A stretch of DNA of 48,147 bases from a virus (Duplodnaviria > Heunggongvirae > Uroviricota > Caudoviricetes). Shown here piece by piece: positions 3,721 through 40,841 of this stretch. The number at the start of each line of letters is the position of its first letter. Within the stretch, counting starts at the first letter, position 1. The notes under the pieces are model-generated. The model did not search any database. It saw only the letters and a program-made list of their open reading frames with translations, and was not told the origin of the DNA. The stretch is taken from positions 70,897 through 119,043 of IMG/VR virus record IMGVR_UViG_3300012663_000707. One strand, 5' to 3'. Made by a program: the position numbers and the translations under genes.

Positions 3721-5549
3721 TATTTAAGTGTTTTTCTTGTTCCTGATTGGATTCTAGTATAAATCTTATTAGAAACTGTTTCCGTATCAAAGTTAACACT
3801 TAATGCTGCTTCAGCATTAATTAAAGCGTCATCAATAATTACGTCACCTTCTCTATCTTGCCAGCCGCCTCTAAATACAGCAACTTCGTCTTTCTCCATT
3901 ATAATATCACCCCATTGGTCTAGACCTGCAATATCATACGGTATTACGGTAGCTTCAGTTACAGGAACTTTAGTCACAGTATCTACCTTTTTAAAGAATA
4001 CATATTTTTGTTTACCGTTACCAATACTTTCTAAAAGTACAGGTTCTTGTGGTGAAACTGTAGATGTGATTGATTCATAATAACCCAATCTTCTAGCAGT
4101 CTCTTCAGTCTCTGATATAAATCTAACGTTTACTGCATCAATACCATCAATCGCTTCTAGAATATAAATAATATCCGACTTTGGTAATTTATCTCTTCTA
4201 GTTACGTTTAATAAATATTCAGAAACTTTAGTACGGATTTGGTTATAGATCTCTTCTTTAGTAAAACCTTCAAAGTATCTAACATTAATATCCATACTAT
4301 ATTTTCTAACTTGTGGTTTAACAAAACTAACTTCAGTTGTCACCATCATTTGCCCTGAATCTTGCAATACTTTATACATTGCATCATATTCAGATTGTGC
4401 AAAAAACATTTCTTCTTGTGGAATTGAAAAATAATCTTGTCCAGAACCTAATTTTCTTTTAACATCCGGCACTGCAAAAATATAGATAACGTTATCATCA
4501 TCTAAATAAGCATCATCTGTGCTATTATAAGCATCGATGTAACTAAAAATACCATATCTTGATAAGAAGTACTCATAGTTATCTGGAGACGCTAGTACGT
4601 ATGACTTAGAGGCCATTGGTGTTAATATCTTTGTGAATCTTGTAGATTCTGCATCTGAACCCATTTTAGGTGCAGATGTCACAGTTACATCTAAGAAATC
4701 ATCTAATTTAATAAAATTGTCTAAAGAATCACTTCCTTCATCTACCCATTTAATTGTAATCCCGGACGCATCTGCTAAATTACCTTTAGTACCTTCGTGT
4801 TTTAAATATTCAACATTGATTTTAGAACCTCTAACTGGAACCATTCCAAAGTTATCATTTCCAAAATAAACATCTAATCCATTAGAGATTGCAGTCTTAA
4901 CCATGTATGCTTTTTCGTTTGCATTCATATCATAAAGTGATACATGCTTAGTCCAAGTCTCACCGTTTACTGCAACTTGGATTCTATTATGATCAGTTAA
5001 GCCTTTTGTTTTAATATTAAAAGATTGCATTTTTTCACCAGTTGATGTAACAACTTGTGTTTCAAATGTACCTTGTACAAATGGAATTGTTAAAGTACCA
5101 TTATAAGATTTGTCAATTTTAAATGCATCTTTGTCACTTAATAAAGTATAAGTAAGACCGTTACTATCAATTGAAAATTGTGCTTGACCTGAAATAATTA
5201 ATGTACTACCGCCGATTTTACTAAAATCAACTCCTGGTTTCCATCTTAATTGAAGTTCACCGAAAGCTGCATGGCCTCTAGTTGCATCATGTCCTGCAAG
5301 TCTAGCAAGTCCATAAATAGATTCAGGTTGTTGTGCAGTATAGATATTTTGTTCTACTGTTGAATCTTCGATATAGAACATTAAAAGTTCACCCATTTCA
5401 GAAAGAACTGAAAGAATCTGTGCATAAGGTGATGCTTCCGTGAAAAGTGTATTTGCACGACCATAAGCCCTAGCAATATAAGTCTTGGCATCGTTACGAA
5501 TACCAGCTGCAGTTACCCTTAGCTTATTTAGAAAATTAAGTTCAGCCAT
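3720..5549 (-). CDS. gp6: Baseplate wedge subunit, T4 gp6/baseplate J-like
   Basis: N-terminal EASPYAQILSVLSEM...EQNIYTAQQPESIYGLARLAGH matches the gp6 pattern. GSDAES and LASPDNYE match the gpJ/gp6 core. Adjacent to gp25. Confidence 0.85.
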   Translation of the reverse strand: MAELNFLNKLRVTAAGIRNDAKTYIARAYGRANTLFTEASPYAQILSVLSEMGELLMFYIEDSTVEQNIYTAQQPESIYGLARLAGHDATRGHAAFGELQLRWKPGVDFSKIGGSTLIISGQAQFSIDSNGLTYTLLSDKDAFKIDKSYNGTLTIPFVQGTFETQVVTSTGEKMQSFNIKTKGLTDHNRIQVAVNGETWTKHVSLYDMNANEKAYMVKTAISNGLDVYFGNDNFGMVPVRGSKINVEYLKHEGTKGNLADASGITIKWVDEGSDSLDNFIKLDDFLDVTVTSAPKMGSDAESTRFTKILTPMASKSYVLASPDNYEYFLSRYGIFSYIDAYNSTDDAYLDDDNVIYIFAVPDVKRKLGSGQDYFSIPQEEMFFAQSEYDAMYKVLQDSGQMMVTTEVSFVKPQVRKYSMDINVRYFEGFTKEEIYNQIRTKVSEYLLNVTRRDKLPKSDIIYILEAIDGIDAVNVRFISETEETARRLGYYESITSTVSPQEPVLLESIGNGKQKYVFFKKVDTVTKVPVTEATVIPYDIAGLDQWGDIIMEKDEVAVFRGGWQDREGDVIIDDALINAEAALSVNFDTETVSNKIYTRIQSGTRKTLK

Positions 5550-8148: not shown

Positions 8149-9459
8149 TTATTCTGGTAGTTTAAGAAAAACTTTATTTGTTTCTACTTCAATTCTTGTA
8201 ATCTGAACTGTGATTTTATCTCCTATTTTTGAAGAAGCAATCATATCTTCACCGACTTCGCTAACATGTAGTAAACCTACAACGCCTTCTTCGATAGTAA
8301 CGAATAAACCGTATTCTTTTTTGCTTTTAACTTCTACTTCAACGATAGCAGGAATCTGGTATCTTGATGCAATAGTTAACCAAGGATTAATAGTATCGTT
8401 GATTTTTTGAGTCAATGTGATTTTAGTATCTGATACAATATCTTTCACTTTAAACTTAATGTCATCACCGGGTTTAATAGATCTAGATTTAAAGACCTTC
8501 ATTGTTTCTTCATCCAAATCATTTACGTGGATCATACCAGTTAAACAACCGTCGAATTCAACAAAGACACCATACTTAGCGGTACCTGTAACTTGACCTA
8601 CGATTTCTTGTTCGATGTTTTCTCTTAGATCAGCAATAGTACTTGGAATTAAAGCTTGCAAATATTTTCTATGTGAAACCACTAGAGTACCACGCTCCGG
8701 AGAGAAACTTACTGGAACTACATACATTTCTTCACCAATAATTGATGTAAAGTCATGTAGTTTATTGATACCTGCTAATGAACCTGGCATAAAACAGTCA
8801 ATGCCCATTACAGTTACGATATAACCACCGCCTTCGATCATACTACTTACTTTACCAACCCAAGCTGTATCTTGTGTATCGATTGCGTTTCTAAGGTCTA
8901 CAAACGTTTTCTGTTTAACACCACCTGAAATACTTCCTAAGATATGTGTGTTAGGTTTGTAGTTAGTAATTAAAACTGCAGTCTCTTCACCCATTGTTAG
9001 AGCCTTGATATAATCAGGTTCACGATCATATTTGACATAGATCAATTCACGGTAACCGATGTCTACTGTAATCCATTCACCATTGATTGCGTAAACTTTA
9101 CCATCGTAAATTTCACCTGCACTAATTTCAGTTTTAAGATTTTGTTCTGAGACATGACCTTCCATTAAATCATAAAGTTCTTGAGCATAAGATGCACGTG
9201 AGTAAACCTTGTCGCCATTTTTTGTTTTAATGTGTGGATTACCTTTTCTTAGAACAGAAGGGCAAGAAGATTCATACTCTGCCCATTTAAAAGAACCATC
9301 TTCATTGTACCATTCGTTATGGTCATCCAAGATCGGATTCTCTTTTTTAAATTTGATTGGATCGAAATCCTGACCTTTTGATTTTGTTGGTTGTTCTTTA
9401 ACAACCTCATCTACCAACGCAACTTGTCCAGCGCGTGGTCTTTTGTTTTTTTGGTTCAT
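8149..9459 (-). CDS. rpsA: Phage-encoded ribosomal protein bS1 homolog, four S1 domains plus N-terminal extension
   Basis: Four S1/OB repeats: GEIYDGKV..VDIGY; GGYIV..CFMPGSL..VVSHRK; YGVFVEF..GMIHVNDL; YGLFVTIEEGVVGLLHVSEV. These align by eye with bS1 D1-D4. Confidence 0.85.
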   Translation of the reverse strand: MNQKNKRPRAGQVALVDEVVKEQPTKSKGQDFDPIKFKKENPILDDHNEWYNEDGSFKWAEYESSCPSVLRKGNPHIKTKNGDKVYSRASYAQELYDLMEGHVSEQNLKTEISAGEIYDGKVYAINGEWITVDIGYRELIYVKYDREPDYIKALTMGEETAVLITNYKPNTHILGSISGGVKQKTFVDLRNAIDTQDTAWVGKVSSMIEGGGYIVTVMGIDCFMPGSLAGINKLHDFTSIIGEEMYVVPVSFSPERGTLVVSHRKYLQALIPSTIADLRENIEQEIVGQVTGTAKYGVFVEFDGCLTGMIHVNDLDEETMKVFKSRSIKPGDDIKFKVKDIVSDTKITLTQKINDTINPWLTIASRYQIPAIVEVEVKSKKEYGLFVTIEEGVVGLLHVSEVGEDMIASSKIGDKITVQITRIEVETNKVFLKLPE

Positions 9460-38353: not shown

Positions 38354-38614
38354 TTAATCCCCAGCCATTATGACTAGTTCCTTTAACTTTAAAAGCTTGG
38401 TGCATTTTTCGTATTCCTCAAGTTCTTCAAAATACTTAATCATCAAGTCTATAAACTTGCTTCGTTGGCCGATACCATGTGGGATTTCAATTAATCGTTC
38501 GTTGTCTTTGAACACAATGAAGCGATTCACCGTCTTGGTAAAGTTCCTTGTGATTTGGTAGTAAGATGCTCTCATCAAACTATCTCGATCCGTATTTGAA
38601 AGGAAACTGCTCAT
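38354..38614 (-). CDS. Small protein with C-terminal UVR-like motif (YFEELEEYEKCTKL)
   Basis: Motif shared with two neighbouring genes. Confidence 0.65.
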   Translation of the reverse strand: MSSFLSNTDRDSLMRASYYQITRNFTKTVNRFIVFKDNERLIEIPHGIGQRSKFIDLMIKYFEELEEYEKCTKLLKLKELVIMAGD

Positions 38615-38732
38615 TTTTCAACTGCTCTTTTTATATTCGATGCGAACGTGGACGCACCTTTACATATATATTTAATACCATCTATCCTGTGCGACAGAAT
38701 CGTATCAAAAAATATACCACAATATCTACATA

Positions 38733-38927
38733 TTAATCTTTATTGATTAAATCTTTTTTCTTTTGTAGATGTTTTGCTTTTGAAAGATCAGCTCTTTTTT
38801 TAGATGATGGTTTCTCGAACTCTTGGCGATTGCGCAGTTCGTTTAGTTGTTTAGTCTTAATGACTTTTGATTTATATTTCTTTAAGGCTTTTTCTATATT
38901 GCCTGATTCTACTTCGATGATCAACAT
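38733..38927 (-). CDS. rpsU: Phage-encoded ribosomal protein bS21 (Bacteroidota type)
   Basis: [21 protein letters not shown]...LRNRQEFEKPS..KR. Confidence 0.9.
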   Translation of the reverse strand: MLIIEVESGNIEKALKKYKSKVIKTKQLNELRNRQEFEKPSSKKRADLSKAKHLQKKKDLINKD

Positions 38928-39202
38928 GACTCTACCTCCTTTTTAATTTTTAGCATGCTTGCGCATTTCTCGTAATCCTCTCTTTTTTCATAGTAACTAA
39001 TGATTTCGCCTATGATTTCTAGTTTACGTTCTTTGGTCATATCAGATAATACGACATAAGATGGATGTGCATTAATTGCATCGTACAGAATATTAAAGAA
39101 TGCGTCTTTACCTCTTAAGGCACTTGTTAGTGTCATAATTATCGTAAAGGCATCTCGACCTTCCATTTTAGGTCTTCTATTCGAAAAGAAATTACTTTCC
39201 AT
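38921..39202 (-). CDS. Small protein with UVR-like motif ([14 protein letters not shown]); 3' end contains the rpsU SD
   Basis: Overlaps the rpsU start. Confidence 0.7.
38934..38943 (-). promoter_or_regulatory. Strong Shine-Dalgarno (AAAGGAGGT) upstream of rpsU
   Basis: Minus strand AAAAAGGAGGTAGAGTC-ATG. No comparable SD seen before the other starts inspected. Confidence 0.85.
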
Positions 39203-40010
39203 TGCTGAGTTGTTTGATTTTATCTATATATTCTAGTTGCTCATCATTTAACTCTGGGTATGATGCGTTAACTCTACATAAGATAGAACCTCTTTTTTCT
39301 GTTCCGTAAATTGGAAAACCTTTCTCTTGTAGTCTAAGAGTTTTACCAGGGTGAGTTCCCTTTGGTATCTTTAATAGTAATTGACCCTCTGGTGTCATGA
39401 TTGGCACTTTGGTTCCAGCCATAATTGACCACCACGGAGTTGTAGTTTCAATCCATATGTCATCACCTTGCAGAATAAATCTTGAATCTGGGATCACGTT
39501 AATAGTAACCAGTAGGTCTCCTTTAGGTAACGTAGTATTATATGGGTGTTGGTGTCCTCTACCTTGAACTCTAAACTTTTGCCCAGTCTTAAGACCTGGT
39601 TTAAAGTTCATGTTTATTGTACCATCCGGTAAATTAAAAGATTTACTTGTACCATTAAAAGCTTCACCAAATGAGATATGAACTTCAACCGGTAAGTCCT
39701 GGCCTTTTTGTGGTGCATTCGATCGATGTGAGTTACCGAACATCTGATCAAACAAACTAGAAAAATCTACGTTATTATTGTTGCCATAACCAAAACTAGA
39801 AAAGAAATCCTGATTTGTTCGTTTGGCATCGTAACTTTTACGTTTCTGTTCGTCACCTAAAACTGAATAAGCTTCTGCAACTTGTTTAAACTTTTCGTCA
39901 CCTCCTGGATTTACATCTGGGTGATATTGTTTACTTAAGTTACGGTAAGCCTTTTTGATTTCGTCAGCAGTTGCTTGTTCAGCAACACCTAACGTTTGGT
40001 AGTGACTCAT
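39192..40010 (-). CDS. dnaJ: DnaJ-class co-chaperone lacking the Zn finger (CbpA-like)
   Basis: J domain ([26 protein letters not shown]) plus DnaJ C-terminal domain. Confidence 0.9.
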
Positions 40011-40231
40011 TATTTTTCAGAAATTTGCTGATCTCTGAAGTCTGTGCTTTTAACATTAGCACCTGTTGTATTAATCTTCTCTCGAAGGTCTGCTCGAAGA
40101 TTTCTTTCGTGTAACTTTTCGACAGTTAACTTGCGTTTCTCAGTAGCTTCTTCTCGGTTATTCTGTTTATCTAAAGCATCTGCTATTCTTGTTAGTTGTT
40201 TTAACAACTCTCTTGCAATCTTATCTTCCAT
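40010..40231 (-). CDS. Hypothetical coiled-coil protein, 73 aa
   Basis: Operonic ORF. Confidence 0.6.
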
Positions 40232-40502
40232 ATCGGTTTTTAATTAGATCAGAATTTCCATTCTGAAAATCTTGGTACGGCAACGAATTATCTTTTTGAT
40301 CTTTGCGAGGCCCGTTTACCATTTTAGTATCTTTGTAAGGATTTGTTTCACCAATTTTATTTCGCAACCAATCATCTAAGTCTTGGACACTAGCGTGGAA
40401 ATGTCTAATTTTATGAAGGTTAGCATCTTCAACGTTTCCGTCAACTGCTACGATCGTATTAGATTCATTTATATACTGGTTGAATGGTTTAACAAATTTC
40501 AT
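40221..40502 (-). CDS. Hypothetical protein with MKFVKPFNQYINE motif
   Basis: Shared motif. GATATATA 4 nt upstream of ATG. Confidence 0.65.
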   Translation of the reverse strand: MKFVKPFNQYINESNTIVAVDGNVEDANLHKIRHFHASVQDLDDWLRNKIGETNPYKDTKMVNGPRKDQKDNSLPYQDFQNGNSDLIKNRYGR

Positions 40503-40506
40503 ACAT

Positions 40507-40514
40507 TATATATC
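40507..40514 (-). promoter_or_regulatory. Late-type promoter GATATATA (motif protein, dnaJ, rpsU block)
   Basis: 4 nt upstream of ATG. Confidence 0.6.
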
Positions 40515-40841
40515 CTACTCAGATATACTTTTTATGTTGACTATCTCTTCGATGTTGGTTAAATGATTTCGAAGTAATGCACATTTTTCATATTCTTCAA
40601 GATCAATGTAGTAATTAATCATGGTATGCAATGTAACTTTTAATGCTTCAAGTTCATCCAGGTCCATCATACGTAGATGCCAGTCGGACAATCCTTTTTC
40701 CTTGATTGATTTATAGTTATTCTCAATTGCAATAACCATCATCTTCTCTCTAAATTCGTTAAGATTAGATTCAAATTCCTTGGCGCTTTCGTTCATGAAA
40801 TCTTCAAAATCAAAATCTTCGTCGTTGAAATCGTTAAACAT
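40515..40841 (-). CDS. Acidic small protein with UVR-like motif (YYIDLEEYEKCALLRN)
   Basis: Third copy of the motif. Confidence 0.65.
   Translation of the reverse strand: MFNDFNDEDFDFEDFMNESAKEFESNLNEFREKMMVIAIENNYKSIKEKGLSDWHLRMMDLDELEALKVTLHTMINYYIDLEEYEKCALLRNHLTNIEEIVNIKSISE

Follow-up and report, generated by a model that had tools for sequence, protein, structure and literature searches.

A strong Shine-Dalgarno sequence before the bS21 gene of an uncultured, Bacteroidota-infecting phage

Introduction

The anti-Shine-Dalgarno (anti-SD) sequence of Bacteroidia ribosomes is hidden under the proteins bS21, bS18 and bS6 (PMC7797042, PMC9976891, PMC13000457, PMC13000453), and Bacteroidota ribosomes that hold bS21 do not read Shine-Dalgarno (SD) sequences (PMC7797042). 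Ribosomes without bS21 are poor at initiating on mRNAs that have no SD (PMC9976891), and in Flavobacterium johnsoniae a reporter with an SD of a mere 7 nt (AGGAGGU) was translated more when bS21 was mutated or depleted (PMC9976891). The SDs of host rpsU genes measure 9–13 bp with a dG below -13, and the extended SD helix clashes with bound bS21 (PMC13000457, PMC13000453). These specialised ribosomes lacking bS21 are among the clearest cases of bacterial ribosome heterogeneity with a defined function, and their one known client so far is host rpsU. What, then, does a strong SD do in front of an rpsU gene carried by a phage? Phage bS21 has been proposed to replace the host's bS21, and an SD on the phage gene is not reported in PMC9723584 or in what PMC9976891 cites of Mizuno 2019; our literature search likewise found no description of an SD on phage rpsU. 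The original prediction, whose account of the Bacteroidota bS21 and anti-SD literature proved accurate, held that the phage gene keeps the SD used in host autoregulation.

Results and Discussion

The phage and its probable host

The window (the whole stretch of DNA analysed, 48,147 nt) is the terminal 48 kb of the 119,043-bp record (34% G+C) of an uncultured, T4-like, Bacteroidota-infecting phage, and nearly all of its genes lie on the minus strand. Phage identity was established by family matches to a baseplate wedge, a helicase and further phage families, and megablast of the rpsU locus against phage records returned zero matches. A tblastn search with the baseplate wedge matched 31 phage records, 25 of them with a named host, which was Prevotella, Tenacibaculum, Chryseobacterium or Flavobacterium in 23 of the 25 cases. 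Relatives of the helicase gave the same host picture, and homologues were present in marine assemblies, Tara Oceans among them. The hosts of the phage's relatives, its SD-less A-rich gene starts and its type of bS21 agree in giving good support to a Bacteroidota host, which is likely to be marine and Flavobacteriia-like. The SD had also been read as a pointer to Flavobacteriia. A Bacteroidota and probably Flavobacteriia-like host stood on the phage relatives and the bS21 type, but the SD alone cannot single out Flavobacteriia since Cytophagia, Chitinophagia and Sphingobacteriia likewise place SDs on rpsU (PMC7797042). The window encodes a second ribosome-related protein, of 436 aa with S1 RNA-binding domains (8149-9459, minus strand; PF00575, E = 2.9e-21).

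The rpsU gene, its product and its gene array

The gene lies at the end of an array of overlapping genes with the following features:

38615..38732, minus strand: intergenic stretch of 118 nt, 3' of rpsU, the first gap of the array
38733..38927, minus strand: rpsU, encoding a phage bS21 of 64 aa (Pfam PF01165, 7JIL_z match, N-terminus)
38921..39202, minus strand: upstream ORF of 93 aa with a UVR-like EDYEKC motif (ORF list, homologue C-termini)
39192..40010, minus strand: DnaJ-like co-chaperone (Pfam DnaJ and DnaJ_C), adjoining the upstream ORF in the overlapped array
40221-40502 and 40010-40231, minus strand: two small ORFs heading the array (ORF list), with overlaps of 11 nt and 1 nt
40507..40514, minus strand: GATATATA motif, candidate phage promoter, 4 nt ahead of the array's first ORF

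The rpsU product matched the Pfam family Ribosomal_S21 (PF01165) above its curated threshold (E = 1.6e-11; 44.2 bits, cut-off 27), and its best PDB match was F. johnsoniae bS21 (7JIL_z; E = 1.6e-10, residues 1-61). The N-terminus, MLII, agrees with the family consensus. Bacteroidota-type bS21 is marked in its C-terminal helix by Tyr54, which stacks on A1534, followed by Ile55. In the alignment to 7JIL_z the phage protein has His53-Leu54 at these positions (His53 at window 38767-38769, minus strand), and Chen 2022 accepted His as compatible at the Tyr54 position (PMC9723584). His is common to the cluster of the closest relative (P0001) and the other close relatives have Tyr, so that, among the close relatives compared, His is confined to the sub-lineage with the full SD. 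With published phage-encoded bS21 (Mizuno 2019, as cited in PMC9976891; Chen 2022, PMC9723584) the gene shares a small product of apparent Bacteroidota type, a large, aquatic, myovirus-like phage as carrier, a residue in place of Tyr54 that is aromatic or His and, probably, expression late in infection. It differs from the published cases in its neighbours, which here are DnaJ, PhoH and RNase HII and not the capsid block. A tblastn search with the protein against phage records matched huge uncultured phages and one fecal contig only, and a profile search of genome contigs found one MAG contig, which carries no host signal because this type of bS21 is essentially viral.

The upstream ORF ends K K E V E S C followed by a stop that overlaps the rpsU ATG by 7 nt. 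This protein had no match in a Pfam search, nor did the two small ORFs heading the array, and the homologues of the upstream ORF end KKEVESC, KKEVEAC or KKEIEAC. The GATATATA motif occurs 9 times in the window, always on the minus strand, against 3.8 copies expected (at 849, 8122, 9488, 16918, 22248, 26426, 29255, 40507 and 43347), with no further copy between 40507 and rpsU. If this candidate promoter is active, a single transcript would carry all five genes, with rpsU at its end. A search for terminator-like sites on the minus strand found none in the 118-nt stretch behind rpsU. The gene is in any case not monocistronic, being the fifth of an overlapped array.

Two further features were also observed. 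In both cases inspected (gene starts 40502 and 43342) the GATATATA motif ends 4 nt before the ATG, and it may be a phage promoter yielding near-leaderless mRNAs or else an initiation motif. Three small paralogues (38354-38614, 38921-39202 and 40515-40841, all on the minus strand) share a UVR-domain-like C-terminal E-[ED]-Y-E-K-C; they are interleaved with rpsU and DnaJ, have homologues in marine assemblies and gave no Pfam match.

A single strong Shine-Dalgarno sequence

The initiation region of rpsU consists of two elements:

38934..38942, minus strand: Shine-Dalgarno sequence AAAGGAGGT, forming 9 uninterrupted pairs with the canonical 3' tail of 16S rRNA
38928..38933, minus strand: spacer AGAGTC of 6 nt, between the SD and the ATG (38927-38925)

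An SD shortly before the rpsU ATG, within the codons for KKEVES, had been predicted and was found exactly so in every detail, with AAAGGAGGT 6 nt before the ATG and encoded within the last 7 codons (KKEVESC) of the upstream ORF. Two extra A residues lie upstream of it (to 38944), one of which might pair after a mismatch. Spacer position -3 is G, and A is the commonest base at -3 genome-wide (60% of starts). RNA folding of the initiation region gave no significant structure that would hide the SD (z = -0.43).

For each of 129 starts on the minus strand, positions -21 to -4 were scanned for pairing with a 16S tail that is assumed to be the canonical Bacteroidia one and may not be the host's. The SD–anti-SD duplex at rpsU reached -13.8 to -14.3 kcal/mol (ViennaRNA duplexfold, where the papers used free_scan) and ranked first of the 129; the runner-up reached -11.2 kcal/mol but with a 14-nt spacer. 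Only 0.09% of all 18-nt coding-strand windows reach -13.8 kcal/mol. AAGGAGG occurs once in the 119,043 bp with both strands counted, and of 45 GGAGG sites in the genome the one at rpsU alone stands at SD spacing before a real start. Among non-rpsU starts of related bS21 phages, 0 of 404 distinct starts reached -13.8 kcal/mol and 0.25% reached -12. The rpsU SD is genuine, correctly spaced and the only one in this genome, and the concern that such sites might be common before other genes was settled by the genome-wide scan.

Exact 9-mers complementary to the 16S tail number three in the whole genome. The only other one on the coding strand (AGGAGGTGA; 39898-39906, minus strand) lies at codon 35 of DnaJ, internal to the J domain and with no start codon behind it. 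A decoy RNA carrying a long complement to the anti-SD was ruled out, no exact match of at least 10 nt being present anywhere in the genome.

The other starts were A-rich and SD-less, as had been predicted. Leaders at -15 to -1 contained 50–60% A and 5–12% G (background 36% A and 19% G), ATG was the start codon in 122 of 129 genes, and 128 of the 129 starts had no SD. SD regions paired less well than mock regions (mean -1.67 compared to -2.96 and -3.42), a depletion also described for Flavobacteriales by McNutt et al. (PMC9976891). SD-led late genes were ruled out for this genome, none appearing in the start scan. A host that reads SDs ordinarily, for which the site would be a normal ribosome-binding site, has a parallel in L392, another phage bS21 gene led by an SD but in a locus where SDs are common. 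Here this explanation is very improbable given the 128 SD-less starts, the depletion relative to mock regions and the Bacteroidota hosts of the phage's relatives.

The site resembles the system of host rpsU autoregulation in Flavobacteriales and other Bacteroidota (Jha 2021, PMC7797042; McNutt 2023, PMC9976891; PMC13000457; PMC13000453), in which a strong SD also stands on the bS21 gene of a genome otherwise without SDs. Its 9 pairs and dG below -13 kcal/mol are within the range of host autoregulatory SDs, at the weak end of it (9 bp, -13.8), and its core is the canonical GGAGG. In contrast to host rpsU, the phage gene is virus-borne, its SD lies inside the coding end of the upstream gene with a 7-nt overlap, and there is no monocistronic leader. 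The sole bacterial example at hand, a Bacteroidota contig (L159) with a T9SS sorting domain and an xerD-like gene adjoining rpsU, served as a host-type comparison. Its rpsU (4245-4433) has an 11-bp SD, AGAAAGGAGGT, with a spacer of 9 nt compared to 6 nt in the phage.

Overlap, reading frame and codon choice at the site

Coupled genes classically have an SD in the 3' end of the preceding ORF, shortly ahead of a stop that overlaps the next start, and the SD here might tether terminating ribosomes at the 7-nt overlap for re-initiation on rpsU regardless of bS21 status. The genome has 20 overlapping gene junctions and the SD is found in the rpsU junction only, so that the SD is not a general coupling device; that candidate role was rejected on the 19 other overlaps. 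Bacteroidota ribosomes that hold bS21 would not read the SD in any event (PMC7797042), and relatives of the phage retain the overlap without an SD. Such an aid to coupling is improbable at this one junction too.

The run AAA-AAG before GGAGG (38938-38946, minus strand) resembles a slippery sequence, and a -1 frameshift on it would join the upstream protein and bS21, with an open -1 frame running through G-G-R-V into Met1 of bS21. The open stretch is, however, merely 4 codons long, no downstream structure is predicted (the same fold, z = -0.43), no fused protein was found among the searched hits of 35–112 residues, and the A-run follows from conserved K-K residues. A frameshift here is scarcely credible, and the slippery resemblance is most likely a coincidence of these residues.

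The coding sequence offers a more serious alternative, in which the 9-mer merely encodes residues K-K-E-V at the end of the upstream ORF's product. Coupling or SD-independent initiation would then yield bS21, as in every relative; the SD would have no selected role, and any effect on bS21-free subunits would be incidental. Given the peptide, the chance of the tandem AAG-GAG is about 6% (AAG 30% and GAG 20% usage), and 1 of 13 K-E-V tripeptides is encoded in this way. The unconditional chance at this single gene, about 1e-4 to 1e-3, counts against this reading. A chance hit somewhere is, however, not negligible because many phage rpsU lineages exist and were looked at; with dozens to hundreds of them, one such hit would be expected at weaker thresholds.

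Conservation among relatives

We examined 84 IMG/VR and 80 metagenome bS21 loci with 47–72% identity, and the SD was nearly absent across them. The gene order DnaJ, small ORF, rpsU was also found in three IMG/VR phages (L165, L166 and L167; 58–63% bS21 identity), all without an SD though the overlap of the Cys-stop with the ATG was retained. A nearer relative (L001; 68% bS21 identity) has AAAGGA only, at a spacing identical to that in the window. The two differ by a synonymous GAA-to-GAG change, which strengthens the SD with spacing unchanged, and by a Leu-to-Val change.

The closest relatives (88–95% identity; P0001-P0006, with upstream proteins P0121-P0129) were compared by their protein C-termini. 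Among the six closest upstream proteins (at least 88% identity), three end KKEVESC or KKEVEAC, the window's own included, and three end KKEIEAC. Val as opposed to Ile corresponds to G as opposed to A at the last G of GGAGG, and an Ile codon gives GGAGA at best; judged from the proteins, the full SD is therefore not fixed even at that depth. One core-SD substitution abolishes initiation on rpsU mRNA in F. johnsoniae (PMC13000457), so phages of the Ile type, lacking a full SD, evidently produce bS21 all the same. The motif KKE[VI]E, as a feature of the protein, is common to homologues of the upstream ORF down to 52% identity.

All bS21 genes were clustered at 85% identity and 35 IMG/VR lineages were sampled blind to the SD; counting their blind-sampled members, a well-placed strong SD was found in 0 of the 35. 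SD-bearing genes were scattered over the bS21 tree, with six changes for six rows, at least four of them forced by well-supported branches. The rpsU SD is not conserved by any of these measures, being absent from the syntenic loci, weak in L001, polymorphic for Val and Ile among the closest relatives and missing from the blind sample. Host SDs, by contrast, co-vary with the anti-SD across species. Lack of conservation at homologous loci had been named beforehand as the finding that would speak against the original prediction, and it is what we found.

The claim that the phage gene keeps its SD also fails on the origin of the site. Inheritance together with a captured host gene was ruled out, as the SD sits in a phage ORF whose homologous end is without an SD in relatives. 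A few base changes at the 3' end of the preceding phage gene created the SD where it now stands, within a narrow lineage. Since it is not conserved, we take the site for a recent fine-tuning step rather than something central to phage bS21. The phage locus matches the known host rpsU SD system in strength, uniqueness (strongest of the genome) and gene identity, and departs from that system in conservation and in the monocistronic leader.

Other SD-led rpsU genes in phages

Two SD-targeted scans of IMG/VR found two further Bacteroidota-type phage lineages with AGGAGG at or near the rpsU start. In both clades this is the strongest local anti-SD match, and their other genes are without SDs. The first, whose bS21 starts MIIVPVK, comprises 12–13 contigs of up to 166 kb (e.g., L393, L394, L397, L399 and L407). 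Here AAAAGGAGGA, itself the strongest local match to the anti-SD, stands in an intergenic leader with an A-rich spacer of 8–9 nt, rpsU looks stand-alone, and the site is identical in two variants with 15% divergence over coding positions. The second, with bS21 starting MLIVKLNN, comprises 34 contigs (e.g., L279 and L320), and its AGGAGG lies 7 nt before an ATG that precedes the conserved start by 9 nt. For most members (L279, L360, L370 and about 25 more) this ATG is directly followed by TAG, a start-stop mini-ORF separated from the rpsU ATG by three bases; in the sister contigs L320 and L354 it lies in frame and lengthens the protein by three residues. GGAAG replaces the SD core in sister sequences. 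In L120, a metagenome contig of phage-like character, GAAAGGAG precedes the ATG by five to six bases.

The contexts of the MIIVPVK and MLIVKLNN clades are unrelated to that of the window, and the bS21 tree puts all of them apart. Counting the window lineage, at least three lineages bear on repeated gain, and the presence of AGGAGG near rpsU in the two others indicates that the layout recurs sporadically. As a rough estimate, an SD is present at rpsU in roughly 1–3% of phage lineages compared to 0.25–0.5% at other starts, an excess that is suggestive and not significant because the denominator is uncertain. An SD at phage rpsU is a sporadic, labile trait. A broader reading holds that Bacteroidota phages repeatedly and independently equip their own bS21 gene with a host-like strong SD, that the phage copy is translated by 30S subunits with an empty bS21 site, and that it thereby plugs into the host's bS21 homeostat and takes over vacated ribosomes. 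We regard this as doubtful.

A possible role of the site

Our preferred explanation, to which we give a probability of about 45%, is that a young, lineage-specific SD makes synthesis of the phage bS21 respond to bS21-free 30S subunits. With the anti-SD buried by bS21, bS18 and bS6 in a Bacteroidota host, translation of rpsU by bS21-containing ribosomes would depend mainly on coupling to the overlapping ORF upstream; the initiation region, with G at -3 and -12, would be poor for them. Subunits without bS21 would expose a free anti-SD and start efficiently on AAAGGAGGU, beside the coupling route. The newly made bS21 would then fill the empty site and close the SD route, following the logic of host rpsU autoregulation. 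The likely payoff would be ribosomes kept filled with bS21, able to read the SD-less, A-rich late mRNAs of the phage, with no overproduction of the protein. The physics of such gating should hold for any such sequence in such a host, whether or not the sequence was selected for that purpose.

Gating of this kind is favoured by the uniqueness, strength and spacing of the SD, by the lack of any equally strong site among the 404 other starts and of an SD at the 19 other overlaps, by its tandem minority codons, by the synonymous GAA-to-GAG change relative to L001, by a bS21 of apparent Bacteroidia type and by relatives that infect Bacteroidota. The F. johnsoniae reporter data (PMC9976891) and the host SD range and clash with bS21 (PMC13000457, PMC13000453) point the same way, as does AGGAGG at rpsU in two other lineages, one conserved over 15% coding divergence. 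Against it stand the non-conservation, the scatter on the tree, an SD rate not clearly above background, a strength near the lower limit for hosts, the shorter spacer and the missing monocistronic leader. A regulatory role is plausible and unproven, as close relatives lack or weaken the site.

The same observations bear on the alternative that the 9-mer is a coding by-product. KKE[VI]E is kept at the protein level in distant homologues, the Val/Ile polymorphism hits the SD core, syntenic relatives have no SD at all, and SD-bearing genes have SD-less sister lineages on the tree; the 6% codon chance and the dozens to hundreds of phage rpsU lineages are also in its favour. It has to contend with the 404 other starts, none of them this strong, with rare codons in tandem at optimal spacing, with recurrence in other phage lineages and with a site that falls on precisely the gene predicted from host biology. 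We consider a coding by-product a real possibility that falls short of even odds.

If SD gating is at work, this would be the first virus gene to exploit the bS21-less ribosome subpopulation, and it would show how phage bS21, the commonest virus-encoded ribosomal protein, enters host ribosomes. The SD-less majority of phage bS21 genes and the lability of the site limit the generality and importance of the mechanism. Genetic tools exist for F. johnsoniae, and the gating claim is directly testable there. The Y54A substitution in F. johnsoniae bS21 weakens anti-SD sequestration (PMC9976891). Within the broader reading that we regard as doubtful, the change of the Tyr54 equivalent to His in the phage protein could loosen sequestration and give the loop positive feedback.

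A different arrangement was observed in many phage rpsU genes (L005-L010, L026-L027, L046-L057 and others), in which a GATAT(A/T)TGTAATAT-like box is conserved and ends at the ATG. This box leaves no space for an SD in those leaders, which suggests that the rpsU transcripts concerned are leaderless or near-leaderless.
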